A stretch of 64,000 nucleotides of DNA from Candidatus Omnitrophota bacterium (GTDB lineage: Bacteria; Omnitrophota; Gorgyraeia; Zapsychrales; JAKLDJ01), in contig JAKLDJ010000004.1 in the NCBI GenBank assembly GCA_022703585.1, positions 71,594 to 135,593 of the forward strand, read 5' to 3'. Positions within the stretch are counted from its first letter, which is position 1; the number at the start of each line of letters is the position of its first letter. Shown here one piece after another: positions 3,915 through 46,488 of this stretch. The translations under genes and the position numbers were made by a program. A model generated the notes under the pieces. The model was given only the letters and a program-made list of their open reading frames with translations, was not told the origin of the DNA and searched no databases.

Positions 3915-5420
3915 ATGAACAGACAAACTAAAAAATCCTTTCTTTCTGTCTTGGTAATTTTTACTGTCCTGGGAGCAGGCATTTCTTTTGATTGCAAGAA
4001 TTTTACATCGGCAACCATGCTCTATGCGCAAACAGCTGCCGTCGCAACAACAGATAACTTTACCCATGCCGTTGAAAATGTCGCTGCTGGCGTCGGACCG
4101 GCTGTTGTTTCCATACTTACCGAAAAGGTCGAGCGCCATCAAATGCGAAGAAGCTTCCGGGGGAGCCCGTTCGAAGACGAATTTCTGGACAGGTTTTTTG
4201 AGGATTTCTTCGGTGAAATCCCCGACCGCGAATTCAAGCGTTCCGGCATGGGGTCAGGTGTCATTATTGATAAACGGGGCTACATACTAACCAACCAACA
4301 TGTAATCGAAGATACCGACACGATAACTGTTACCTTGCCGGATGGAAGAGAGTTTAAAGCCACTCTAAAAGGGACCGACCCGCGCTCGGATTTGGCGGTA
4401 GTAAAAATTGACGCCCCGGACCTTCCGATTGCAAAATTAGGCGATTCCGACACCCTTAAAATCGGCCAATGGGTTGTCGCCATCGGCAGCCCCTTTGGCA
4501 ACTTATTGTCAAACCCGGAGCCAACCGTCACTGCGGGCGTAATCAGCGCACTGCATCGCTCTCTGCCGCGCACATCCCGCAGGGATTTGGATTATACCGA
4601 CCTGGTTCAGACCGATGCCGCCATCAATCCCGGTAACTCCGGCGGGCCGCTGGTTAACTTAGACGGTGAAATCATCGGAATTAACGTTGCCATATTTTCA
4701 ACTTCCGGCGGTTATCAGGGCATTGGATTCGCTATACCGGTCAATACGGCCAAAAGGATCGTCACTAATCTCATTGAAGGCAAAGAGGTTGATTACGGAT
4801 GGATTGGCGTCAGCATCCAGGATGTCGATGAGCAGTTGGCCCAATATTTTGGCTTATCAAAATCCGAAGGAGCCGTTGTGTCCAAAGTCCTTGATGACGG
4901 GCCTGCGCAGAAGGCGGGGATCAAGGACGGCGATGTTATCCTTTCGGCTGACGGAAAACCGATTAAAGACGTTAATGCCTTATTGAAGATTATCGGCAAT
5001 ACGCCGGTCGGCAAGAAAATCGCCGTTGAGGTCGTTCGAGATAAGAAAACTATAACCCTTTCCATCACTGTCGGCAAAAGGCCTTCGTTTGATGAAGAAG
5101 GTGAAATGATAACCAAAGAGGAAGCGTCAAGAGGCCCCGTCGAAACAAAAACCAATCAATGGCGCGGCCTTACAGTTGAAAATATCACGCGTGAGCTTAG
5201 TCAAAGACTCAACATTAAGAGCACAAACGGGGTTGTGGTTGTTGCCGTCGAAGACAACAGCCCCGCTCAGAAAGCAGAGTTGAACAAAGGTGATGTCATC
5301 ACCATGATCAACAAAGAACTCGTCCGTGATACTAGGGATTTTCAGGTGGCTATCCAGCGGGCGAAAGGCGATTGCCTTATCCAGACCATGCGCGGTTTTG
5401 TGGTTATCAAGGAACAATAG
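3915..5420 (+). CDS. htrA: Periplasmic serine endoprotease, HtrA/DegP family (trypsin-like domain + two PDZ domains)
   Basis: Signal peptide; catalytic motifs TNQHVIED, D...AVVKI and GNSGGPLVN; two PDZ-like segments in the C-terminal half. Confidence 0.9.
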   Translation: MNRQTKKSFLSVLVIFTVLGAGISFDCKNFTSATMLYAQTAAVATTDNFTHAVENVAAGVGPAVVSILTEKVERHQMRRSFRGSPFEDEFLDRFFEDFFGEIPDREFKRSGMGSGVIIDKRGYILTNQHVIEDTDTITVTLPDGREFKATLKGTDPRSDLAVVKIDAPDLPIAKLGDSDTLKIGQWVVAIGSPFGNLLSNPEPTVTAGVISALHRSLPRTSRRDLDYTDLVQTDAAINPGNSGGPLVNLDGEIIGINVAIFSTSGGYQGIGFAIPVNTAKRIVTNLIEGKEVDYGWIGVSIQDVDEQLAQYFGLSKSEGAVVSKVLDDGPAQKAGIKDGDVILSADGKPIKDVNALLKIIGNTPVGKKIAVEVVRDKKTITLSITVGKRPSFDEEGEMITKEEASRGPVETKTNQWRGLTVENITRELSQRLNIKSTNGVVVVAVEDNSPAQKAELNKGDVITMINKELVRDTRDFQVAIQRAKGDCLIQTMRGFVVIKEQ

Positions 5421-5423
5421 CCG

Positions 5424-5897
5424 ATGCCAGCGGAAGAATCGGCCGAAGAGTTTACGAAAGCAAAGAAATTCAGTTTTCGTCTTTTGAAAGTTCGCGGCCG
5501 AAGCGAAGCAGAAATCAAGGAAAGACTCAGGCAAAAAGAGTTTCCCGATTCCGTCATCGCGCAAACGTTACAATATCTTCACCAAATGCGGCTCGTCGAT
5601 GACCGCCAGTTTGCCAAGGATTGGGTCAGCGCCCGCGGCGAGAAATCCTTTGGATTACGGCGCATCGCCTCTGAACTTAAACAAAAAGGGATTGCCGACG
5701 AAATCATCAATGAAGAACTTGAGCAGTTACGCAATAGCCACCACGAAGAAGAAACAGCTTTTACATTGGCCAAACAACAACAGTTAAAGCGCTGCAAAAA
5801 CATGGAAAAGGAACGGGCAATGCAGCGCATCTTTCAATATTTAGCCCACCGGGGTTTTAATCCGGAAATAATCGAAGACACCTTAAGGAAATTATGA
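5424..5897 (+). CDS. recX: RecA regulator RecX
   Basis: 157-aa three-helix-repeat RecX-like sequence. Positioned between recA/htrA and alaS, the conserved recA-recX-alaS context. Confidence 0.8.
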   Translation: MPAEESAEEFTKAKKFSFRLLKVRGRSEAEIKERLRQKEFPDSVIAQTLQYLHQMRLVDDRQFAKDWVSARGEKSFGLRRIASELKQKGIADEIINEELEQLRNSHHEEETAFTLAKQQQLKRCKNMEKERAMQRIFQYLAHRGFNPEIIEDTLRKL

Positions 5898-32710: not shown

Positions 32711-32756
32711 TTTTATTGGCGGGGTAGCTCAGCCCGATAGAGCACTCGGCTCATAC
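32711..32756 (+). repeat. attL-like direct repeat (7 nt upstream plus first 39 nt of the tRNA(CAT) gene)
   Basis: ttttattggcggggtagctcagcccgatagagcactcggctcatac is identical to 46325-46370. The copy diverges immediately after the anticodon loop. Confidence 0.85.
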
Positions 32757-32864: not shown

Positions 32865-33773
32865 ATGAAATTAAACGATGCGTATGATGAATTTATCAAC
32901 TCAGCACTTTTGGAAAGATGTTTAGAGCAAACAACTATTGATTGGTATTCTCGTTGCATTCAGCCAGTATTTAAATACTTCCGCTACAACCTCATTCCGC
33001 TAGAAGTTGATTCTCTAACAGTCGAAAATCTAAGAAAATATTTTATTAGTTACAAACAAAAAGGAAACACTTCAAGGACTGTGCTTAATGCAATGCAGGG
33101 CACTAGGTCTTTTTGTAGTTTTCTACTCAAGAGGGGGTATTTGCAAAAAAATCCTTTCCTTGAACTTGAAAAACCAAAGCTACCTAAAACACTTCCTGAA
33201 TTCTTAGATGAAGAAGAGGCAAAAAAATTACTACAAGCATGTATTAATCTCAAAAGAACCTACAAATCTAGGTGGAGCAGAGACATTGCTATTATCGCTT
33301 TGTTTCTCTTTGCTGGTTTGCGCAAGAAAGAACTTTTAAACTTAAAACTAAACGATTTCAATCAAGAAAAAGGATATATCAAAGTTTCTGCAAAGAATAA
33401 AGAGAGATTAGTTCCATTATGCGATACAGCTAAATCATTTCTACTGGATTATCTGAAAATAAGACCCAAAAGAGTGCTGGTCGATAATATTTTTGTGTCT
33501 ACTAACAGAAAATCATCTGCACTAACGCAACAGGGGTTATACGATTTATTCCTGGATTTACGTAAGCTAGTACAGTTTAGGATAAAGAAAAAGCTTAGCC
33601 CCCAAATTCTGAGGCATACTTTTTGCACCTTAATGCTCCGAAATGGCGTAAATTTGCGGGATATTCAGCTTTTAGCAGGGCATTCGGATATATCTACTAC
33701 GGCAAGATTTTATTTGGGGTGTGATGAAAAACAGCTAAAAAGTGCGGTAGATAGACATCCGTTGAATATTTGA
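32865..33773 (+). CDS. int: Tyrosine-type site-specific recombinase/integrase
   Basis: C-terminal catalytic region LRHTFCTLMLRNGVNLRDIQLLAGHSDISTTARFY (R...HxxR...Y). N-terminal SAM-like core-binding domain. Confidence 0.9.
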   Translation: MKLNDAYDEFINSALLERCLEQTTIDWYSRCIQPVFKYFRYNLIPLEVDSLTVENLRKYFISYKQKGNTSRTVLNAMQGTRSFCSFLLKRGYLQKNPFLELEKPKLPKTLPEFLDEEEAKKLLQACINLKRTYKSRWSRDIAIIALFLFAGLRKKELLNLKLNDFNQEKGYIKVSAKNKERLVPLCDTAKSFLLDYLKIRPKRVLVDNIFVSTNRKSSALTQQGLYDLFLDLRKLVQFRIKKKLSPQILRHTFCTLMLRNGVNLRDIQLLAGHSDISTTARFYLGCDEKQLKSAVDRHPLNI

Positions 33774-33797: not shown

Positions 33798-36700
33798 ATG
33801 CGCATGTCCGCATTAGTCGAAGAAAGAATAAAGAGATGGAAAAACAAATTAATAGACCTATCTAAACGTAATCGACTCCTCAATTTTAAGCCCACCAAAA
33901 CAACCACTATTCAGATTGTAGACGAAATTCCATCAGAAGCTTATCGTACTATTGTTCTAAATGAAAGTGTCATGTCTTTTCTTCCAGCAGATGGCGATAT
34001 CGAAGGCGACAAAGACAATACGGGTTCTTCCAGTCAGCTTGAAATAAAAGAATTTCAAGATTACGCTCAAGAAGAATTAGACACAAAACACACTGATTTA
34101 TACCTTCAAACAAACTTGGGTGAAAGCCATCTCGACAAGAATTTATTTCGCATTACTTCAATCGCTACATCGGTTATGGAAGAACAAGGTTATAACTCTT
34201 TGTTTTTGGCATTAGGTTTTTTGGAGTGGTATGAATCAAAAGATTCGGATGTTAAGTTTAGGTCTCCTATCCTTTTAATTCCTGTGCAATTAAACAGAAA
34301 ATCAGTCAAAAGTGATTATACTTTGAGTTTTGGTGAAGATGCGCCTATTTTGAATCCTGCATTAATATATATGCTTTCGCTTGATTTTGGCATTGATTTA
34401 GAGGACATAAGCGAAGAATTAGAACAAATTGAACCCAGAGAAATATTCAGAAAAATACAGGAAGCGATTCAGGAATTTGAACGTTGGAAAGTAACTAATG
34501 ATATCTTTTTAAGTTTGTTTTCATTTACGAAATTTATTATGTTTAAAGATTTAGAAAAGAATATGGGCACGCTCATTGATAATAAAGTTATCCAAATTAT
34601 TTGTGGTGTGGGGAGAGAAGAAAATATAGCCTTGGACGACATTTGCCCATTAGGAGAAATTGAGAAAAATACGAAACCGGAGAAAACTTTTCAAATTCTT
34701 GATGCAGACTCAAGCCAACAAAGAGCAATTCTCGTAGTCAAAAAAGGACATAACCTTATTATCGAAGGCCCCCCAGGAACAGGAAAGTCGCAAACAATAG
34801 CCAACATGATTGCGGAAAGTCTAACAGAAGGGAAGAAAGTATTATTTGTGAGTGAGAAAATGGCAGCTCTTGAGGTTGTAAAGAATCGGCTTGAATTAGC
34901 CGGTATTGGAGATTATTGCTTAGAACTGCATAGCCGTAAGACTAATAAAAAAAGGGTAGCTGAGGAACTTGGAAGGGTGATGGAACAACGAAAAAAGCCC
35001 GACCATAGCCATAATGATGAATTAGCTAAATTAGAGAGATTGCGTTCAGAATTAAATCGCTACGTATCAGATTTGCATAAAATATTTGGCGGGCTTCAGA
35101 TGACCCCGTACCAAGCAATTGGGATAGTTAATGCACATCCAGATATGCCAGACTTAGAATACATGTTTAATAACACCAAAGAGTGGTCAAAAGATAAATT
35201 TGATATAATCTGTGAACTTTTTGAGAAATTAAGTCGAAATATATTGAATATCGGACAACCACGATTGCATCCTTGGTTCGGTACAAGTCTTATCGAATTA
35301 GTTTATTCTGACAAAACAAATCTAAGAAACCATTTCAATAACATAAGTAGAATAGTTTCTGAGCTAAAAATTAGTATTGATGCATTGAGTGAAATCAGTT
35401 CATTTGGTGATGTAAAAACTATTTCCGATATTCAAGAATTGTTAGATGCATCTGAAATTTTGAAACTTTCGCCTAACGTAGCAAGTGATTTGCTAAAAGA
35501 TAAACGTTGGAATGATATCAGTGCAGATGTGAGACAAGCTATTAGTGCAGTACAAACATTTAATACTTTTGAGAAGAAATATTCAAGCCAGTATAAAATG
35601 ACGGTGTTGAATGAAAACATTGAGGAGATTCTCCAAAGATATAAAACTTATACGAGTAACATGTTTTTTGTATTTAAATTTAGTTTCTGGAAAGATAGTA
35701 AAGTTCTCAAGAGTCATTTTACAGGTAAGAGAAAAATTAACCTAAAGGAACTAATCAAGGAATTAGACGAATTATTTCTTTGGAAAAAGTCTGCACAGCA
35801 AATAGACGATTTTAGTAAAAATGGAAATGAGCTTTTTGGTGAACGATGGAGAGGGCGTAAGTCCAGTGGCGAAGAACTCCAAAAGTTCTCAGAATGGATT
35901 GTCAAATTTAGATATCATGTAATTAAGAATCATTTTAAAGATAAGGTTTTTGAAAGCAGCAAAGATAAATCTTCTCTTGAAGATTTACAAACGAAAGTAA
36001 AAAACAACTTGGATGAATTTAATGGTGTTTTAAGCTCAATCAATAGCATCGTAAAATTCGATTATAAATTAGCTTTTAGTACTAAGCTCTGCGAACATAA
36101 TGACCTTGATATGATAAGAGGGAAATTAAATAAGATGAGCGAGTCGATGGAAGAAGTAGACCCTTGGCTAAGCTTTCAGAGAGTATACCAAGAATGTGAG
36201 AAGGAGGGGTTAACTGAATTTATTGATGTGCTTTTAGCCAAAGATATTAAACCAGAAGCATACGTGACGGCTTTTAAATGTCAATTCTTACGATGTTGGT
36301 TGGATGAGGTTTTCTCTGAGAGAGATAGATTAAGAAATTTTCAAGGTAAAAACCATGAACAATTGATTGAGCAATTCAAACAATTAGATTGCAAACAAAT
36401 TGAATTGGCAAAGGTTCGAATCCAACATCTTCTTTCTGGAAATTATGATTCAAGTTGGAAAGGAGCTCAGAGTTCTGAGAGAGGAATACTGGAGCGTGAA
36501 GTTAGAAAAAAAAGAGCACATAAGCCTCTTAGAAAGTTATTTAAAGAAATACCTCACTTGTTATTATCACTAAAACCCTGTTTAATGATGAGTCCTTTAA
36601 CTGTCGCACAGTTTTTGGAGCCAGACTTATTCGATTTTGACTTGGTTATTTTTGATGAAGCTAGCCAAGTGCCTCCTCAGGACAGTATTGGAGCAATTAT

Positions 36701-38498
36701 GCGTGGTAAGCAAATAGTTATTGCAGGTGACGCTAAGCAGTTGCCACCAACTTCATTTTTTCAATCAACGGTATTGGATACTGAAGATGATGATGAATTT
36801 GATGAGTATATCCCAGAAGATTTAGATAGCATTCTAGATGAATGTGCGTCAGTTGGCTTGCCTCGGACTTTATTAGAATGGCATTACAGAAGCAAACACG
36901 AGTCTTTAATCGCATATTCGAACAAATATTATTATGAAAATAGATTAAATACTTTTCCTAATTCAATAGATGTGAGTGATACGCTTGGAATTAAATTCAA
37001 TTATTTTCCAGAGTCACAGTACCGTAAGGGCGGTGTAAATATTCTTGAAGCACAAGAAGTTGCTAAAAGAGTGTTTCAACATTTTAAGGAGAATCCTGAT
37101 ATAAGTTTAGGTGTGGGGACGTTCAGTATCAAACAAAAATATGCCATAGAGGATGCTGTTGAAGAATTAAGAAAGAACGATACAAGCTTAGAAGACTTGT
37201 TTTCTCCGGATAGGCCAGAGCATTTCTTTGTTAAGAATCTAGAATCAATACAGGGAGATGAGCGAGACGTAATCTTTATTAGTATTGGATATGGTAAGGA
37301 TGATTCTGGAAAATTGCCAATGAGATTTGGACCTATTAATCAACTGGGTGGAGAGCGAAGGCTTAATGTTCTTATTACGCGAGCAAGAAGACGATTAGAA
37401 ATCTTCAGCTCAATACGAGGCTCCGACTTTGACTTGACTAAAACAGAAAGTGAGGGAGTGCACCTTCTCAAGAAATATCTCGATTATGCTGAGCTGGGAA
37501 GAAGCGTACTGCTTCAGGATATCGAATATTCGAATTCATCTAGTTATTCTGACTCTCCATTCGAGGAGGCAGTATATGAATCTTTAGTCAGGGCAGGATT
37601 TAAGGTTCATCAACAAGTTGGGTGTTCAGAATATAGAATTGATATGGCTATCGTCGATGTTGAATTACCGGGCAAGTATGTACTTGGCATTGAATGTGAT
37701 GGAGCAAATTATCATTCAAGTATTACAGCAAGAGATAGGGATAGACTGAGACAGCAGGTCTTAGAGGGCCTGGGATGGAATATTTATCGAATTTGGTCTA
37801 CCGATTGGTTTAAAAATAAGAAGAAGGAAACAGAAAGATTGATTGAGGCAATTAGAGAAAGCCAGAAGGGAAATAGTAAAAAAAAACTAAATAAATATAC
37901 TAGTTTTGAAATAAAACTCAATTCCGCCTCCACAGAGACATTATCGAATAAAGATAGGAAATTGGTAGATTATCAATTAACTCCCGTGGATTCCATCAGA
38001 ACATCAGATTTTTATTATCAATCAGATGAAGTTCTAGCTCAAATTTTAATTAAAATAGTCAAGTGTGAGGGGCCGATTTTTTATGAAGAAGCATGGAGGA
38101 GATTAATCCAACACTGGGGGATGCGGTCTGTAGGCAGTAGGATTCGACTCAAATTAAAAGGCTTAGAGCAATACTGCTTAAATAATAAGAAATTTGAGAA
38201 ACGAAAAGATTTTTATTGGCTTAATAAGCATCAAGAATTGAAGATTAGGAACAGAGACGTTAACGATGTTTATAAAAAGATTGAGTATGTTGCCCCAGAG
38301 GAAGTCCAAGAAGCAGTGAAATATGTTTTAAATATGGAGTACTCAATACCACTAGTTTCTTTAATATCTCAAACAGCTAAATCATTAGGCTTCCATAGGA
38401 TTGGTGATGACGTTTATTCATATATTAAGAAAGCGATTGATTTGCTTATAAAAAATGAAGATTTGTATGAAGACAACGGCAATATAAGGATTAAGTAA
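33798..38498 (+). CDS. Giant helicase-nuclease: DUF4011-like N-terminus, Upf1-like SF1 helicase (AAA_11/AAA_12), Vsr/DUF559-like PD-(D/E)xK nuclease and DUF3320-like tail
   Basis: 1566 aa. SF1 motifs: Walker A EGPPGTGKSQT, Walker B VIFDEASQV, motif III IAGDAKQLPPT, motif V IQGDERDVIFIS, motif VI NVLITRARRRLEIF. C-terminal endonuclease-like block: FEEAVYESLVRAGFKV...EYRIDMAIVD...LGIECDGANYH. Confidence 0.8.
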   Translation: MRMSALVEERIKRWKNKLIDLSKRNRLLNFKPTKTTTIQIVDEIPSEAYRTIVLNESVMSFLPADGDIEGDKDNTGSSSQLEIKEFQDYAQEELDTKHTDLYLQTNLGESHLDKNLFRITSIATSVMEEQGYNSLFLALGFLEWYESKDSDVKFRSPILLIPVQLNRKSVKSDYTLSFGEDAPILNPALIYMLSLDFGIDLEDISEELEQIEPREIFRKIQEAIQEFERWKVTNDIFLSLFSFTKFIMFKDLEKNMGTLIDNKVIQIICGVGREENIALDDICPLGEIEKNTKPEKTFQILDADSSQQRAILVVKKGHNLIIEGPPGTGKSQTIANMIAESLTEGKKVLFVSEKMAALEVVKNRLELAGIGDYCLELHSRKTNKKRVAEELGRVMEQRKKPDHSHNDELAKLERLRSELNRYVSDLHKIFGGLQMTPYQAIGIVNAHPDMPDLEYMFNNTKEWSKDKFDIICELFEKLSRNILNIGQPRLHPWFGTSLIELVYSDKTNLRNHFNNISRIVSELKISIDALSEISSFGDVKTISDIQELLDASEILKLSPNVASDLLKDKRWNDISADVRQAISAVQTFNTFEKKYSSQYKMTVLNENIEEILQRYKTYTSNMFFVFKFSFWKDSKVLKSHFTGKRKINLKELIKELDELFLWKKSAQQIDDFSKNGNELFGERWRGRKSSGEELQKFSEWIVKFRYHVIKNHFKDKVFESSKDKSSLEDLQTKVKNNLDEFNGVLSSINSIVKFDYKLAFSTKLCEHNDLDMIRGKLNKMSESMEEVDPWLSFQRVYQECEKEGLTEFIDVLLAKDIKPEAYVTAFKCQFLRCWLDEVFSERDRLRNFQGKNHEQLIEQFKQLDCKQIELAKVRIQHLLSGNYDSSWKGAQSSERGILEREVRKKRAHKPLRKLFKEIPHLLLSLKPCLMMSPLTVAQFLEPDLFDFDLVIFDEASQVPPQDSIGAIMRGKQIVIAGDAKQLPPTSFFQSTVLDTEDDDEFDEYIPEDLDSILDECASVGLPRTLLEWHYRSKHESLIAYSNKYYYENRLNTFPNSIDVSDTLGIKFNYFPESQYRKGGVNILEAQEVAKRVFQHFKENPDISLGVGTFSIKQKYAIEDAVEELRKNDTSLEDLFSPDRPEHFFVKNLESIQGDERDVIFISIGYGKDDSGKLPMRFGPINQLGGERRLNVLITRARRRLEIFSSIRGSDFDLTKTESEGVHLLKKYLDYAELGRSVLLQDIEYSNSSSYSDSPFEEAVYESLVRAGFKVHQQVGCSEYRIDMAIVDVELPGKYVLGIECDGANYHSSITARDRDRLRQQVLEGLGWNIYRIWSTDWFKNKKKETERLIEAIRESQKGNSKKKLNKYTSFEIKLNSASTETLSNKDRKLVDYQLTPVDSIRTSDFYYQSDEVLAQILIKIVKCEGPIFYEEAWRRLIQHWGMRSVGSRIRLKLKGLEQYCLNNKKFEKRKDFYWLNKHQELKIRNRDVNDVYKKIEYVAPEEVQEAVKYVLNMEYSIPLVSLISQTAKSLGFHRIGDDVYSYIKKAIDLLIKNEDLYEDNGNIRIK

Positions 38499-38777: not shown

Positions 38778-41309
38778 ATGTTTAATTTCTTCAAATTTCA
38801 AAATTATCGCTCTTACTGGAAAATAAGAAATTTGGTTTTATTATCTAAATTTTGGATACATAGGTTGTTTTTTCAAGGTAATTTAAAAATAAAAGACGCT
38901 CAGGAAGAGTTGTCAATAGTTACTCACCTAACATGGCTTGCTTCAAAAACCATTCTTTTTTCTATTCTTATCGTAGTATCTTGTGAATCATTCGAAAAAG
39001 CAATATTAAAATTTCTCCCTACTAATACAACAATCCTTCTAGCGGGAATGCACGACTTAGTTATAAGAAACTCCAGTTCTTTGGAGAATTTTATCATGAC
39101 GATTGCTTCGATACTAGGCGTGTTCTTGGGTCTTTACTTTACTGCAATTAGTATCGTAGCTAGCTCGGTATTTACAGCTGTGCCGAGCAATGTTAGAGAG
39201 TTGTACTTAAAAGAGAAAATTGGGAATACCTATATACGGATATTGGCTATCCTTTTAGCAATTTCGATTATAATCTTTGGCTGTCGGATATTTGGCTATT
39301 ACCCAAGCACGCTGCTAACCGTTTTAATGCTGATTTTTAGCTGTGTCAGCATATTCGCATTTGTAATGTTGGGGGTTAGAGCCTTTTCCTTCTTCGACCC
39401 CACTGTGTTAGTAGATATAATTTTTGCGGATTTATATGCAGATATAAGATTGGCGAGTGTAAGTGGCCTAAGGTGGCTCGATTCTAACTTTCAGTCTCAT
39501 TACCATAAGCTTGCATCAAAAAACGTAAACACCCTTGCTAATTTGGTCGAAATATGTCTAAAAAATCCTCATTTATACAAGAAATCTGTCCCGTTGCTAT
39601 CATGGCGTCTATGCTATTTTTTAAAAGATTATCAAATGCAAAAAGCCCGAATACCTACTGATAGTTACTGGTTTTCACGTATACCAAAATATAAAGACAC
39701 CTTCATCGTAGACGACACAACTTTAACAGTAGCATTACAAACTCAAACTTCTATTCAACCGGAATCTATAACTGATAATTATTGGCTGGAAGATGAAATT
39801 TTTGAAATCCTTACGAATATGCTTAGCATTATGTTAAATAATCACAATATTATAATCTCTGCCGATATTTTAGATGGTATTAATAAATATTTTGAAGATT
39901 TGGGAGAGAAACTGGAGGGTAAGAAATGCTGCGATATGTTTAAGAAAATAGAAGCAGTAATGGAACCTTATTTTCTAAGTCTTTCTGAAGAAAAATGTAA
40001 AGGAATAGCGGATGTAAATTTTGCTCTGTTTGATAGATATAACATGCTTCTGTTGTCTTGCGCGATGGGATTCAATAAATTTATTCGTGAATTCAAAACA
40101 TCTTCCTTTATGCAAAACATAGATTCCATTTTGTGGGAGGATAGGGGTGCTATTTATCGAAACTCTATGGTGCCGATGCTATTGGAAAGGCTAGAATTCC
40201 TCCAAAAACGCCTCGAATTTGAACAGAAAGTAGAAGGGGAGTTTGTTAGCCCTACTTGGTACAGAAGACAGTTACTTAGTAATAAAATTGGCTTAATAGT
40301 GAACGAAGTTTTTGAATCAATGATGAGTTCATTGCAAAATTTTTATGTTAATAGTTCCAGCGCACTTTTAAACAAAAAAGCAGTTATCTTAACAACATAT
40401 AGGGCAAAAAGAGGTCTCGAAGTATTCTGGAAAATGCAAACCCATATTCTGCATCTCAAGAAACTGATTGAAAATCTCGAAAAATTTAACATAGAAAAAG
40501 AATTGTTTTGGCCAAAGTGGGATTGGGATGTTATTGAGAAGAAAATCGATAAAAATAATGATGCCCTCATACAACAAGAAGCTAAATGCCTTCCGGCACT
40601 ATCTATCATAAATAAAACAGAGAATGAGCCAGACCTCTTCGGCGAAACATATCATAAAATCTGTGAAGAATGTTTTGCATCTTTGGCAAATAATAAAGAT
40701 GAAAAATTCTCCACAATATTTCATTCCTTATTTATAGGTGCTCTTCAAGCGCATGACCGCCTTAGAATTTCGTATAAAGACCGTGACGCCAGAACTCAAA
40801 TATTAATTTCATTTCAGCCATTAGCAGACCTTATAGAAGTAAGTGGCTATGCCAAAATATATTCTGAGTTGTTCTCTTCTCCAAAACTATGGGAAACGTG
40901 CCAGGAATGTTGGAATAATTATTTAAATAATAAAGAAAAGAAAGATGAAACAATAGAATACATCATTACGAGTTACCAATATAAAAAGGCACAATTCGGT
41001 TTATTTGCACGAGATATTTGGAAAACAAATTGGCAAATTAAACTTAATAGAAAATTGCAAGAAATGAATTTAATCGACAGTATGTTTAGAGAAGACGATT
41101 ATCCGAGAAAGCCAAAAGAGAGACTTGCGGATAAAAGTCCTTTTATCCGAACTCTGTGCAGAGGGAGATATGAACCATTTATTCGTGCTTCAGAAATTTT
41201 TCTCCTCATTTATTTTGTAAAACAACTTGGAGTTAAGAACTTTTCCGATAATCATAATTTTATTCGGCATTTGGAAGAGGAAGAAGCTAAGACCAATGTT
41301 ACGAAATAA
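38778..41309 (+). CDS. Large multi-pass membrane protein (≈6 N-terminal TM helices + ~600-aa cytoplasmic helical region), function unknown
   Basis: 843-aa ORF with hydrophobic helices between residues ~45-230 and a Lys/Glu-rich alpha-helical remainder. No recognisable catalytic motif. Confidence 0.6.
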   Translation: MFNFFKFQNYRSYWKIRNLVLLSKFWIHRLFFQGNLKIKDAQEELSIVTHLTWLASKTILFSILIVVSCESFEKAILKFLPTNTTILLAGMHDLVIRNSSSLENFIMTIASILGVFLGLYFTAISIVASSVFTAVPSNVRELYLKEKIGNTYIRILAILLAISIIIFGCRIFGYYPSTLLTVLMLIFSCVSIFAFVMLGVRAFSFFDPTVLVDIIFADLYADIRLASVSGLRWLDSNFQSHYHKLASKNVNTLANLVEICLKNPHLYKKSVPLLSWRLCYFLKDYQMQKARIPTDSYWFSRIPKYKDTFIVDDTTLTVALQTQTSIQPESITDNYWLEDEIFEILTNMLSIMLNNHNIIISADILDGINKYFEDLGEKLEGKKCCDMFKKIEAVMEPYFLSLSEEKCKGIADVNFALFDRYNMLLLSCAMGFNKFIREFKTSSFMQNIDSILWEDRGAIYRNSMVPMLLERLEFLQKRLEFEQKVEGEFVSPTWYRRQLLSNKIGLIVNEVFESMMSSLQNFYVNSSSALLNKKAVILTTYRAKRGLEVFWKMQTHILHLKKLIENLEKFNIEKELFWPKWDWDVIEKKIDKNNDALIQQEAKCLPALSIINKTENEPDLFGETYHKICEECFASLANNKDEKFSTIFHSLFIGALQAHDRLRISYKDRDARTQILISFQPLADLIEVSGYAKIYSELFSSPKLWETCQECWNNYLNNKEKKDETIEYIITSYQYKKAQFGLFARDIWKTNWQIKLNRKLQEMNLIDSMFREDDYPRKPKERLADKSPFIRTLCRGRYEPFIRASEIFLLIYFVKQLGVKNFSDNHNFIRHLEEEEAKTNVTK

Positions 41310-42279
41310 AAAAATACACCAAGACGAAAAAAGTTCGATGAAATCCATTTATTACACTCCTTTGGAGCATCGAAGGGATGTGTACAGCTCTTTTTATAAT
41401 CACATGCTAACCGAAGATATTCATTTGGGCATAATGCCCTTTGGCGGAAGAACCAAAAATGAGTTGTTTAAAGTAGCAGTTAAACCACAGGATGCGGAAA
41501 TCGAGAATTTAATAAAAGATAGTTTACTTACGCATCACGGCGAACCGTATGATTTAAAAGAAGCGATTTGCGACTTTATTGACGAAGCTGCTGCATTACT
41601 AGGATACGATGGCGTAGCTTATTACGAAATTGTATATTATACGACTTCCAAAAAGCCGACACGATTTGAGTTGCACCGTATTATCAACAGAAATATAAAA
41701 GATACGTTTGGATTATACTGGCAGTATATCCCGAGTGCTGCACGAAAATATATAGAAACGGATAAGAAATTCATCTGGCTACCTAAGAGGAGAATTATTA
41801 AAATAAAATTTCCCAGTATAATTGGTGGTTTAAATTCTCAACGAACATTAATCCACAACCTAACATGGCTGAGCGAATGTAGCGTAACACCGAAATTTGC
41901 AATGGAAGACATGAAAAAACAAAAGCAAACAAACGATTATGATTTCGTAGTTTACCAGAGAAACAAGAACATATTTTTAGCTAGAATAACGCAACGTTTA
42001 GGATGGTCTGCTCGAGGCGAATTGAATGATTATACATTAGATATTTATCAGTTATACCGATACCTAAAATTTGAGAAAACCAAAGCAATTATCCGAGAAA
42101 CTGTTTTAGGCAATCTTAATAAAGCACTAGCTACTATCGGTAAAGAAATTGGTTTTAATGCAACAATCGAAATAAGCGGTATTCCTTCAGCATCAGATTT
42201 TGATAATTACATAGATAAGCTTCTTTCGGGAGAAATGCCATTTGCCAAGGTTGTCGAGATTATGAAATATGATTGGTAA
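41296..42279 (+). CDS. Hypothetical protein, translationally coupled to the upstream membrane protein
   Basis: ATG at 41296 overlaps the preceding stop by 14 nt. 327 aa with no recognised domain. Confidence 0.5.
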   Translation: MLRNKKIHQDEKSSMKSIYYTPLEHRRDVYSSFYNHMLTEDIHLGIMPFGGRTKNELFKVAVKPQDAEIENLIKDSLLTHHGEPYDLKEAICDFIDEAAALLGYDGVAYYEIVYYTTSKKPTRFELHRIINRNIKDTFGLYWQYIPSAARKYIETDKKFIWLPKRRIIKIKFPSIIGGLNSQRTLIHNLTWLSECSVTPKFAMEDMKKQKQTNDYDFVVYQRNKNIFLARITQRLGWSARGELNDYTLDIYQLYRYLKFEKTKAIIRETVLGNLNKALATIGKEIGFNATIEISGIPSASDFDNYIDKLLSGEMPFAKVVEIMKYDW

Positions 42280-43627: not shown

Positions 43628-43656
43628 TTGACAAAATTATTTTTGTGTTCTATAAT
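43628..43656 (+). promoter_or_regulatory. Consensus sigma70 promoter (TTGACA-N17-TATAAT) inside the island
   Basis: ttgacaaaattatttttgtgttctataat has perfect hexamers with 17-nt spacing. It reads into the iteron-like repeats and the small ORF / repO-like gene. Confidence 0.6.
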
Positions 43657-43689: not shown

Positions 43690-43817
43690 GTGGATTTTTT
43701 GCGGACGAAAAGTGGATTTTTCATGGAAATAGAGTGGATTTTTCGTAATATATCTGAAAGGAGGTGATAATATTTAAAGAATAAAAAAATAAAAGAAAAC
43801 GGATAAATCGTGGATTT
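43690..43817 (+). repeat. Iteron-like direct repeats GTGGATTTTT (x3 at ~21-23-bp spacing, plus a fourth degenerate copy)
   Basis: gtggattttt occurs at 43690, 43710 and 43733, with cgtggattta at 43808. Two-helical-turn spacing, located immediately upstream of a lambda-O-like initiator gene. Confidence 0.55.
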
Positions 43818-45139: not shown

Positions 45140-45219
45140 AATAATACATCTATCGCGTTTTTGCGAAGGAACATTTCCATTGACATTTGCTGAAGCATTT
45201 GTTATGGTATACCAAAACT

Positions 45220-45393
45220 ATGAAATACTATACCATAAGTCAACTTGCTAAAGAGCTTAAAGTGCATAAAAATACCATTTTCTATTGGGAGAAAACGGGT
45301 AAAATACCTAAACCCAAGAGAGAATCTGTAAGCGGTTATCGTGTTTGGACAGAGAAAGATGTAAAAAAGATAAGAGAGTCAAATTCGAGGTGA
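45220..45393 (+). CDS. MerR/excisionase-like HTH protein (candidate Xis or regulator)
   Basis: 57 aa. YTISQLAKELKVHKNTIFYWEKTGKIPKPKRESVSGYRVWTEKDVKKI follows the MerR-type/Xis pattern. Sits near attR. Confidence 0.5.
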   Translation: MKYYTISQLAKELKVHKNTIFYWEKTGKIPKPKRESVSGYRVWTEKDVKKIRESNSR

Positions 45394-45396
45394 AAA

Positions 45397-46215
45397 ATGA
45401 CAATAAATAACTACGATGAATCTCACATAGAACGAAAATATTTTATCGATGGACATATGTATAATTGTCCTTTCTGTAATATTAGAAATGTACAATACGA
45501 GATTTCTAATTCGGGAAGATTTTCTTGGTCACGTGAGCGAGATTGCTATTTTTATCTTGTCAAGTGCAGTCATTGCGACCACACTTCTTTTCATTTAAGT
45601 AATTATGATTTGGTTAGAAATTATGGTCATTTTGAAAATCCGCCAAAACAGCGTAAGATTATTCAAGGAGAAAATCAAAGCTTCAAAATTTTGAAAAATG
45701 GAGTAGAAGTCATGGAGCTTGATGAAGTATTCTTTTATCATCAGCCAACAAGCTTCTTCACAATAGATAACAGAATACCTGAAATTATACGAAATCTTCT
45801 TTCTGAAGCTGAAGGCTGTAGAAAAATGGATTATCTTGTGGGTGCTTCGGGCTGTTTAAGAAAAGCTATTTATGAATTGCTAGACTTACAAGAAATCGGC
45901 AACGAAGAAAATGATACTAAATTACCCTACGAGGAAAGAATAAAACGACTAAAAGGAAAATTTCCTAACATAGATTCGGAATATTTTGATATTCTTGCTG
46001 GAATACAAGGCATGACAAGCGATAACCTTCATGAAGGTTCTTGGGATAGCTTTGATTCTCGAACTCTAGCTCTATTAATAGAGACAACCAAAGAAATCTT
46101 ATATGAAATTTATGTTTTACCTGATGAAAAAAAGACAAAAAGGAACATAATAGCTAAAATGCGAGAACAATTTAAACAACAAAAATCAACAGCCGATACC
46201 GAATCAAAAACTTAA
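45397..46215 (+). CDS. Zinc-finger protein with C-terminal DUF4145-like helical domain
   Basis: N-terminal CPFCN...CSHCDH zinc ribbon. The C-terminal ~100 aa (LRKAIYELLDL...ILAGIQGMTSDNLHEG...) resembles a DUF4145-type module, recalled from memory. Confidence 0.4.
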   Translation: MTINNYDESHIERKYFIDGHMYNCPFCNIRNVQYEISNSGRFSWSRERDCYFYLVKCSHCDHTSFHLSNYDLVRNYGHFENPPKQRKIIQGENQSFKILKNGVEVMELDEVFFYHQPTSFFTIDNRIPEIIRNLLSEAEGCRKMDYLVGASGCLRKAIYELLDLQEIGNEENDTKLPYEERIKRLKGKFPNIDSEYFDILAGIQGMTSDNLHEGSWDSFDSRTLALLIETTKEILYEIYVLPDEKKTKRNIIAKMREQFKQQKSTADTESKT

Positions 46216-46324
46216 TTTAATAACAGAAAGGAGAAAGCATACTAGACAAATAATTCTTAGTCAATGGTTGTAAAAAATATTGAATTTTTGTCAATTTTAG
46301 CTTAGAATCCTTCAATTATATTAA

Positions 46325-46370
46325 TTTTATTGGCGGGGTAGCTCAGCCCGATAGAGCACTCGGCTCATAC
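46325..46370 (+). repeat. attR-like direct repeat (7 nt upstream plus first 39 nt of the intact tRNA)
   Basis: Identical 46-mer to 32711-32756. Confidence 0.85.
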
Positions 46371-46405
46371 CCGATTGGTCGAGAGTTTAAATCTCTCCCC
46401 CGCCA
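46332..46405 (+). tRNA. tRNA with CAT anticodon (elongator Met or Ile2/lysidine type)
   Basis: Hand-folded cloverleaf: acceptor GGCGGGG/CCCCGCC, D-arm GCTC-loop-GAGC, anticodon loop CTCATAC (CAT), T-arm GAGAG-TTTAAAT-CTCTC, discriminator A, no encoded CCA. G1-C72 rules out the initiator. tilS lies 1.2 kb downstream. Confidence 0.8.
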
Positions 46406-46488
46406 CTTTCTCTCACAAACCCCACCCGAAAATTCCGTAGATTACTTTGCCCCGTATCAGTATAATAAGGAAGCAAAGGAGGGGACCC

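Follow-up and report, generated by a model that had tools for sequence, protein, structure and literature searches.

The defence protein PD-T7-4 of Escherichia coli UMB1727 has been renamed RAZR, for ring-activated zinc-finger RNase (PDB 9Y9C/9Y6U; Nature 2026, PMC13017515). Its N-terminal Cys4 zinc finger senses ring-forming phage proteins (Gp77 and portal proteins), and a conserved linker joins this finger to a C-terminal DUF4145/HEPN RNase. RAZR forms 24-mers around the trigger and cleaves single-stranded RNA, and its mode of defence is abortive infection (Abi); residues R146 and H154 are essential for defence, and the R146A substitution abolishes it. The protein is non-toxic when overproduced alone and is encoded by a single gene that needs no antitoxin (PMC13017515). 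In the present study we analysed a 64-kb stretch of a Candidatus Omnitrophota genome (contig JAKLDJ010000004.1; hereafter the window, with all positions counted from its first nucleotide). The analysis centred on two genes that end a 13.6-kb, low-GC island inserted in tRNA-Met: one for a 57-aa helix-turn-helix (HTH) protein and, downstream of it, one for a 272-aa protein that is very probably a distant homologue of RAZR.

Two other described groups are relevant for comparison. In the DUF4145 domain (PF13643) the Rx..H motif is "mostly conserved (80%)", and zinc-ribbon fusions as well as restriction-modification (R-M) operon contexts have been listed for it (PMC3710099, Anantharaman et al. 2013). 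Abi contexts also include HEPN families, such as c2405, in which the His is retained but the Arg is missing (PMC3710099). DS-38 is a DefensePredictor-validated E. coli protein which carries a HEPN domain and a zinc finger in a single polypeptide, the finger being unlike that of PD-T7-4 (bioRxiv 10.1101/2025.01.08.631726). Judged by this description, the 272-aa protein has the same combination of domains as DS-38 and may be related to it.

Anatomy of the 272-aa protein

A previous sequence-only reading of the window had described the gene pair as a MerR/excisionase-type HTH gene followed, after a 3-bp gap, by a gene for a protein with an N-terminal CxxC...CxxC finger and a DUF4145-like C-terminal domain, adjacent to attR. 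The coordinates and anatomy of the pair were confirmed (Table 1), as was its position beside the attR copy of a 46-nt repeat. The gap is exactly 3 nt long (45394-45396), and a GAGGTG Shine-Dalgarno sequence at 45387-45392 overlaps the stop codon of the HTH gene. Both open reading frames (ORFs) are real genes and not chance ORFs.

For the 272-aa protein, the database search yielded 199 or more homologues of full length, with E values down to 1e-112; an entry identical to it (100%) is from a Candidatus Omnitrophota MAG. In an alignment of 74 of them (referred to as A1), the cysteines of the finger, C24-x2-C27 and C57-x2-C60, are invariant, as is H66; across the wider family the zinc-finger cysteines are conserved in at least 201 of 202-215 proteins. 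The segment between the finger and the C-terminal domain begins with an indel-rich stretch and continues with the invariant residues D109, F113, P117 and F121. Further invariant positions (R132, E137, G149, R155, K156, Y159, H212, E213 and W216) lie in the C-terminal domain. In the AlphaFold2 model built with A1 (mean predicted local distance difference test score, pLDDT, 89), the N-terminal domain is rich in beta strands and the C-terminal domain is helical, and there is an additional hairpin; strands 84-89, 92-97 and 112-116 belong to the clade-specific segment. The C-terminal domain has the four-helix up-down core of HEPN proteins, and ends with a long helix. The HEPN proteins listed for the model were SO_3166 and the HEPN domain of sacsin, as well as Csm6, AbiA, LsoA and Las1.

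The family also has weak matches to the zinc ribbons of Lar restriction-alleviation proteins and IS1595 transposases (best E 0.0015 and 0.0008, in 18/74 and 10/74 members, respectively). Both assignments were rejected, because the matches reflect the generic shape of a zinc ribbon and ignore the HEPN domain.

Homology to RAZR

The relationship to RAZR is supported by profile comparisons. The RAZR family was represented by 37 plasmid- or phage-borne sequences collected with tblastn, which score 224-301 bits on the PADLOC PD-T7-4 model (alignment A2). With hhalign, A1 and A2 were aligned over 154 collinear columns spanning both domains, with a probability of 90% and an E value of 1.6e-6. The N-terminal domains compared with each other gave P 2.7e-5 (reversed control, 0.69), and the HEPN region in the full-length run gave P 5e-6, compared with P 0.12-0.69 for the reversed-sequence controls. 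The profile phrog_1305, which recognizes true PD-T7-4 proteins at 1e-28 to 1e-34, matched residues 23-251 of the 272-aa protein, i.e. nearly its full length, at 4e-7, and members of its clade at values as low as 1.2e-11.

Searches of the PDB pointed to the same protein. Among 350,542 PDB chains, the best Foldseek match was RAZR (9y9c_OA), aligned over 231 columns and both domains (E 0.027, prob 0.92). This chain was also the best PDB match in phmmer, where aa 18-82 were aligned with residues 10-74 of RAZR and both CxxC motifs were in register (E 0.63, not significant alone). Matches of the A1 profile to shikimate dehydrogenase and FabG in the PDB (E ~1) were dismissed as noise. On the combined evidence, we regard homology to RAZR over both domains as well supported and highly probable.

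Both families combine, in a single gene and in the same order, a Cys4 zinc ribbon at the N terminus, a linker that is conserved, and a HEPN domain of the DUF4145 type, and neither has a conserved partner gene. Several invariant residues are aligned: E137/A138 with E101/A102, R155 with R118, and H212 with the catalytic His. In contrast to RAZR proteins (~205-225 aa), the protein of the window is 272 aa long. It differs by a clade-specific insertion of ~45 residues between the finger and the HEPN domain (a variable hairpin and an invariant FFYHQPTSFFTID-like motif), a stretch left unaligned by hhalign, and by its long C-terminal helix.

The DUF4145-like assignment made in the sequence-only reading proved to be right by an indirect route. 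The direct check gave no result, since the 272-aa protein itself has no match in Pfam at E<=10; relatives and the links to the RAZR family were positive. Of the 74 relatives in A1, six match DUF4145 at E<=1 and the other 68 do not. One of the six, P0116, which is 47% identical to the 272-aa protein (BLASTP), scores 26.7 bits and thus exceeds the gathering threshold of 23.1, with a match to profile positions 2-75 of 88. The HEPN fold is common to DUF4145 and this clade, some members of which pass the Pfam threshold; unlike DUF4145, the clade lacks the Arg of the Rx..H motif.

True RAZR genes occur in phages as well. We observed one in the filamentous Vibrio phage 10N.261.54.B5_PE001 (Tubulavirales; PQ189324.1, 9123-9788; PADLOC PD-T7-4, 9.8e-87), where it adjoins a gene for a DUF2726 protein; this is a defence gene carried by a phage. 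A 65-aa RAZR fragment used as a query in a large protein database matched two fragments.

The favoured explanation and points that weigh against it

The explanation we favour, with moderate confidence, is that the 272-aa protein is a single-protein, RAZR-like zinc-finger HEPN defence cargo of the tRNA-Met island, and that the HTH protein is a regulator of the island and not its dedicated partner. Judged by analogy with RAZR, the cargo protein is most likely a phage-triggered, single-protein Abi effector. It would be harmless alone. In a phage-infected cell, its zinc finger would bind a protein of the phage (ring-shaped portal-like assemblies in the case of RAZR), and the HEPN domain would then be activated by higher-order assembly. 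This domain would cut cellular RNA, so that translation would stop and the infection would be aborted. A defence or Abi role for the 272-aa gene had been put forward as an alternative in the sequence-only reading, and the DUF4145-type HEPN domain together with the homology to RAZR lends it support.

A number of results weigh against this explanation. Apart from the empty Pfam search, no NCBIfam match was found for the 272-aa protein, and its score on the PADLOC PD-T7-4 model (PDLC04109) was only 14.2 bits (E 0.0055), restricted to aa 19-70, i.e. to the finger. The Foldseek E value is weak and not significant alone. The comparison of the C-terminal domains on their own with hhalign was likewise weak (P 0.009, prob 4%), and RAZR was not recovered from PDB sequences by the A1 profile at E<=10. 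In the AlphaFold2 model, the motif region has the lowest confidence (pLDDT 59-68). At the position of the catalytic Arg of RAZR, the five commonest residues in 223 sequences are Gln (150), Lys (36), His (16), Tyr (6) and Thr (4), and Arg is not among them. Many homologues are located among housekeeping genes. No member of the clade was found in IMG/VR, PLSDB plasmids or GenBank phages, so its association with mobile elements rests on few loci. Finally, the scores of HMM-versus-sequence (hidden Markov model) searches between the clade and the RAZR family were only 7-13 bits. Because of these low cross-family scores, and because the A1 profile does not reach the far larger RAZR family (thousands of clusters), the 272-aa family is, by its sequences, best described as a separate clade and a distant homologue of RAZR.

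The missing catalytic arginine

The LRITGNNAVH segment of RAZR corresponds to I-Q-x-M-T-S-D-x-L-H-E in the clade. The His of the catalytic pair (R-x7-H; R146/H154 in RAZR-Ec) is kept, as H212 is present in 216/219 sequences within an H-E-x2-W motif, and the Arg is replaced. The Rx4-6H motif of HEPN RNases is not found either, the His alone being conserved. The chemistry of the clade, or the cleavage of RNA at all, may thus differ from that of RAZR. Since R146A abolishes RAZR defence, the clade would have to use other residues, for which R155-K156 and R132 are candidates, or have a non-canonical activity.

These features could reflect a mechanistically distinct branch of zinc-finger HEPN immunity in the candidate phyla radiation (CPR) and Omnitrophota, lineages in which hardly any defence system has been characterised. 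In such a branch the Arg would have been permanently exchanged for Gln, Lys or His, the T-S-x3-H-E-x2-W motif and R155-K156 would be invariant, and the sensor would be enlarged by the insertion. RNA cleavage would be non-canonical or lacking, and the triggers would be other than the phage rings recognized by RAZR. We put this forward tentatively, as a possibility that is more doubtful than probable.

A further reading is that the HEPN domain of the 272-aa protein has lost its catalytic activity and that the protein, rather than being an Abi RNase, has a role other than that of a nuclease, e.g. as an RNA- or protein-binding regulator or as a decoy. The occupation of the Arg position by Gln, Lys or His, considered together with the R146A phenotype, would agree with a loss of activity, as would the presence of several homologues among housekeeping genes. 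However, T207, S208, H212, E213, W216, R155, K156 and E137 hardly vary even among highly diverged sequences, which argues for a constrained active or binding site. Moreover, the His-keeping, Arg-less families such as c2405 come from Abi contexts, and the patchy spread of the clade and its neighbours (R-M, Fic, SIR2 and toxin-antitoxin genes) fit defence. We consider a dead HEPN domain quite unlikely.

Distribution and genetic neighbourhood of the 272-aa family

A search of 1.84 billion proteins with the A1 profile yielded 414 clusters at 50% identity; the best 150 hits listed were mostly fragments, and all of them fell inside the clade. Members are present in Patescibacteria, Omnitrophota, Planctomycetota, Acidobacteriota, Chloroflexota, Bacteroidota, Proteobacteria, Actinomycetes and one Nitrososphaeria archaeon, mainly in uncultured lineages. 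This wide and patchy distribution is as expected of horizontally moving genes.

For the analysis of gene neighbourhoods, 80 loci were taken from GTDB species representatives and 9 from metagenome assemblies; the search for HTH genes covered 85 homologues. None of the 85 loci contained a relative of the 57-aa HTH protein (phmmer), and no recurrent neighbour of any kind was detected among them. The immediate neighbours of the homologues vary in size, strand and spacing. The 508 neighbouring proteins fell into 467 clusters, the largest of which, an ABC-F ATPase, was represented at five loci in varying positions. Of ten small ORFs sampled upstream on the same strand, one encodes an unrelated HTH protein (Xre-type) and the others products without a family. 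The closest relatives (62% identity) have no HTH gene nearby; they adjoin an MNT-HEPN pair and genes of purine biosynthesis. As no related HTH gene and no recurrent neighbour occur in the 85 loci, the 272-aa family is a single-gene module, like RAZR. The HTH gene is not a conserved partner, its juxtaposition is specific to this island, and the two genes do not constitute a new system.

These data bear directly on the proposal, made in the sequence-only reading, that the two genes form a dedicated pair, either an excision-control module or a toxin-regulator pair. In the latter case, the HEPN protein would be a constitutive toxin repressed or neutralized by the HTH protein, in the manner of a toxin-antitoxin system. 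The close spacing of the genes, the overlap of the Shine-Dalgarno sequence with the stop codon of the HTH gene and a possible operator at the shared promoter would suit such a module. Nevertheless, the pairing is not conserved at any of the 85 loci, no neighbour recurs, the only HTH protein encoded by the ten small upstream ORFs is of another type, and RAZR is a single-gene system whose overproduction is not toxic (PMC13017515). A toxin-regulator module is therefore very unlikely, and the idea of a dedicated pair was not borne out.

Scans of the neighbouring proteins against Pfam and PADLOC identified DNA methylases (including type I HsdM), ResIII, Fic, SIR2_2, integrases and Ymh, in addition to housekeeping proteins. 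The qualitative picture is suggestive of a context of defence and mobile DNA. The MNT (NTP_transf_2/Polbeta) and HEPN genes that adjoin the closest homologues were observed at three loci (L086-L088, 1-1253) and constitute a toxin-antitoxin pair. At another locus (L001), a Hypoth_Ymh protein, a member of the HEPN superfamily, is encoded beside the homologue (5006-5695). In several Patescibacteria (L059, 5105-9238; L065, 5102-9218; L046), the homologue is placed between an upstream gene for a Fic protein and a downstream gene for a protein of ~810 aa, the genes being separated by 1-5 nt. Among the neighbours, the N6_Mtase and HsdM_N domains of type I methylases recur. This arrangement may represent a lineage-specific operon in which the gene has come into an R-M or Fic context. 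In Candidatus Levybacteria (L003-L005, L010), the homologue is located at the edge of an element with genes for a large serine recombinase, an HTH_17 protein and an AAA_15/AAA_21 ATPase. The downstream sequence differs between otherwise identical contigs, which suggests a mobile-element boundary.

The 57-aa HTH gene and its promoter

The ORF of the HTH gene encodes 57 aa from an ATG start codon, and an alternative reading of 68 aa starts from TTG at 45187. The exact protein is restricted to this island (12 contigs from several samples). Its assignment to the MerR/excisionase type was upheld by matches to Pfam MerR_1 (E=4.3e-11) and MerR (2.3e-9), PADLOC mad1 (1.1e-13) and phrog_66, "excisionase and transcriptional regulator" (4.5e-8). 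The scores for HTH_17 (25.8 bits; cut-off 27) and TIGR01764 "excise" (18.5 bits, E 0.0019; cut-off 28.8) remained below the cut-offs. Like Xis, AlpA and Mad1 of MADS, the protein consists of an HTH and a wing only. It differs from them in that it is under the cut-off of the NCBIfam MAD1 model as well, its gene is not beside the integrase gene, and there are no MADS genes nearby.

A putative sigma-70-like promoter precedes the HTH gene (Table 1), and from it the HTH and 272-aa genes are probably co-transcribed, with translational coupling, as judged from the arrangement of the sequence. The promoter overlaps a candidate operator in which TTATGGTATA occurs three times, without mismatch at 45202 (+) and 45229 (-) and with a single mismatch at 45208 (-). 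This site contains a perfect inverted repeat of 10 nt, together with a palindrome that overlaps it. With up to one mismatch, TTATGGTATA has seven matches in the whole window, three of which are those at the HTH promoter. Because of this triple motif, the HTH protein probably autoregulates the small HTH-plus-defence operon, and it is probably a regulator belonging to the island backbone.

The HTH protein may, additionally or instead, be the recombination directionality factor of the island. In a stronger version of this idea, the HTH and 272-aa proteins would both control excision; in the weaker one, the HTH protein would be the excisionase and the two genes would simply be the island's terminal operon next to attR, the 272-aa gene being unrelated cargo. 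The superfamily of the protein, with its HTH_17 and phrog_66 matches, and the position of the gene ~1 kb from attR are consistent with an excisionase. Furthermore, as all genes of the island are on the + strand, the operon would read across attP into the integrase gene in an excised circle. On the other hand, MerR_1 and mad1 match the protein better than the excisionase models, for which it falls short of the curated cut-offs, and in the integrated state the gene is 12 kb away from the integrase gene. The sole clustered candidate motif is at the promoter of the HTH gene itself. No match to TTATGGTATA (<=1 mismatch) was found in the att arms, and the placement of the motif hence gives, as far as sequence can tell, no support to binding there. 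The stronger version is contradicted by the homology to RAZR and by the stand-alone distribution of the 272-aa family. Overall, we regard the excisionase reading as unlikely, and retain that of a regulator followed by single-gene defence cargo.

The tRNA-Met island and its other genes

The features of the island are listed in Table 1. The GC content between the att repeats is 0.32-0.38, compared with ~0.47 in the flanks. The 46-nt direct repeat is perfect and equals the 5' half of tRNA-Met(CAT).

Table 1. Positions of the main features of the tRNA-Met island within the window.
Feature	Position	Strand	Description
attL core	32711..32756	+	Second copy of the 5' half of tRNA-Met
Tyrosine integrase of the island	32865..33773	+	Phage_integrase 3.3e-28; phrog_1 8.5e-47; at the island end opposite attR
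1566-aa PDC-S37/Hhe-like helicase-nuclease	33798-38498	+	DUF4011, SF1 helicase (AAA_11/AAA_12), MTES_1575 restriction-endonuclease fold, DUF3320
Sigma-70-like promoter (putative)	45180..45208	+	TTGACA-17-TATGGT, extended -10 TG; 10/12 consensus positions; 11 nt before HTH ATG; consensus match only
Candidate operator	45202..45238	.	Three TTATGGTATA copies over the -10 box and the first HTH codons
57-aa short winged-HTH protein, MerR/excisionase superfamily	45220..45393	+	HTH and wing only; Pfam, PADLOC and phrog matches
272-aa RAZR-like protein	45397..46215	+	Zinc finger, linker with insertion, HEPN (DUF4145-like)
Cys4 zinc-ribbon domain, ~aa 15-68	45439..45600	+	C24, C27, C57, C60, H66; invariant Cys and H66; matches to RAZR
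Clade-specific finger-to-HEPN segment	45601..45771	+	Variable beta hairpin (aa ~77-105), then motif D109-x3-F-x3-P-T-x-F-F-x2-D124
HEPN/DUF4145-like helical domain, aa 126-272	45772..46212	+	Q204 at the position of the RAZR catalytic Arg
attR core	46325..46370	+	Same 46 nt as attL, within the intact tRNA-Met gene at 46332-46406

Integration into tRNA genes usually targets their 3' end. The insertion point of this island is in the 5' half of tRNA-Met, and a 5' tRNA fragment remains at attL. The intact tRNA-Met gene is therefore now preceded by island DNA, in which a promoter-like site is present at 46280-46308. A search of metagenome contigs for the empty attB site, as an exact 66-mer, gave no match. 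A 13,628-nt Logan contig (SRR5007150) was considered as a candidate for the excised circle and rejected: its length is that of the unique island (13,568 nt) extended at either end by 30 nt of the att repeat, as a break in the k=31 assembly graph would give.

The gene following that of the integrase encodes the second defence-type cargo of the island, a 1566-aa helicase-nuclease which matches the PADLOC candidate system PDC-S37 over its full length (E=0, 1627 bits) and Hhe at 1e-208. Two genes on the + strand are located between the two defence-type genes. They encode an 843-aa multi-pass membrane protein (38778-41309) and a protein of 313-350 aa (41227-42279), for which no family was found in Pfam, PADLOC, NCBIfam or PHROGs; together they could form an uncharacterised system. 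Further downstream, there is a sigma-70 site that fits the consensus perfectly (TTGACA-17-TATAAT, 43628-43656). After it come three perfect GTGGATTTTT repeats with a spacing of exactly 22 nt (43690-43743), upstream of a 72-aa gene and a gene for a RepO-like 305-aa protein. The iteron-like arrangement of GTGGATTTTT suggests that the island is able to replicate after excision. No relatives of the RepO-like protein were found in metagenome or viral contigs.

Conclusions

For the window, the analysis describes an island that ends with a probable regulator and then a single-gene, probably defensive cargo. At the level of the family, it reveals a sister clade of RAZR with at least 400 clusters at 50% identity, which is missed by PADLOC, Pfam and NCBIfam and occurs in uncultured phyla, including CPR and Omnitrophota. 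The characterisation of RAZR dates only from 2026; what defines its chemistry is a HEPN site of Arg and His that becomes active when the protein assembles around phage rings. An active clade would widen the known sequence space of sensor-effectors that unite a zinc finger with a HEPN domain, and would put to the test which residues are needed in a HEPN RNase. An inactive one would represent a defence scaffold turned to a different use.

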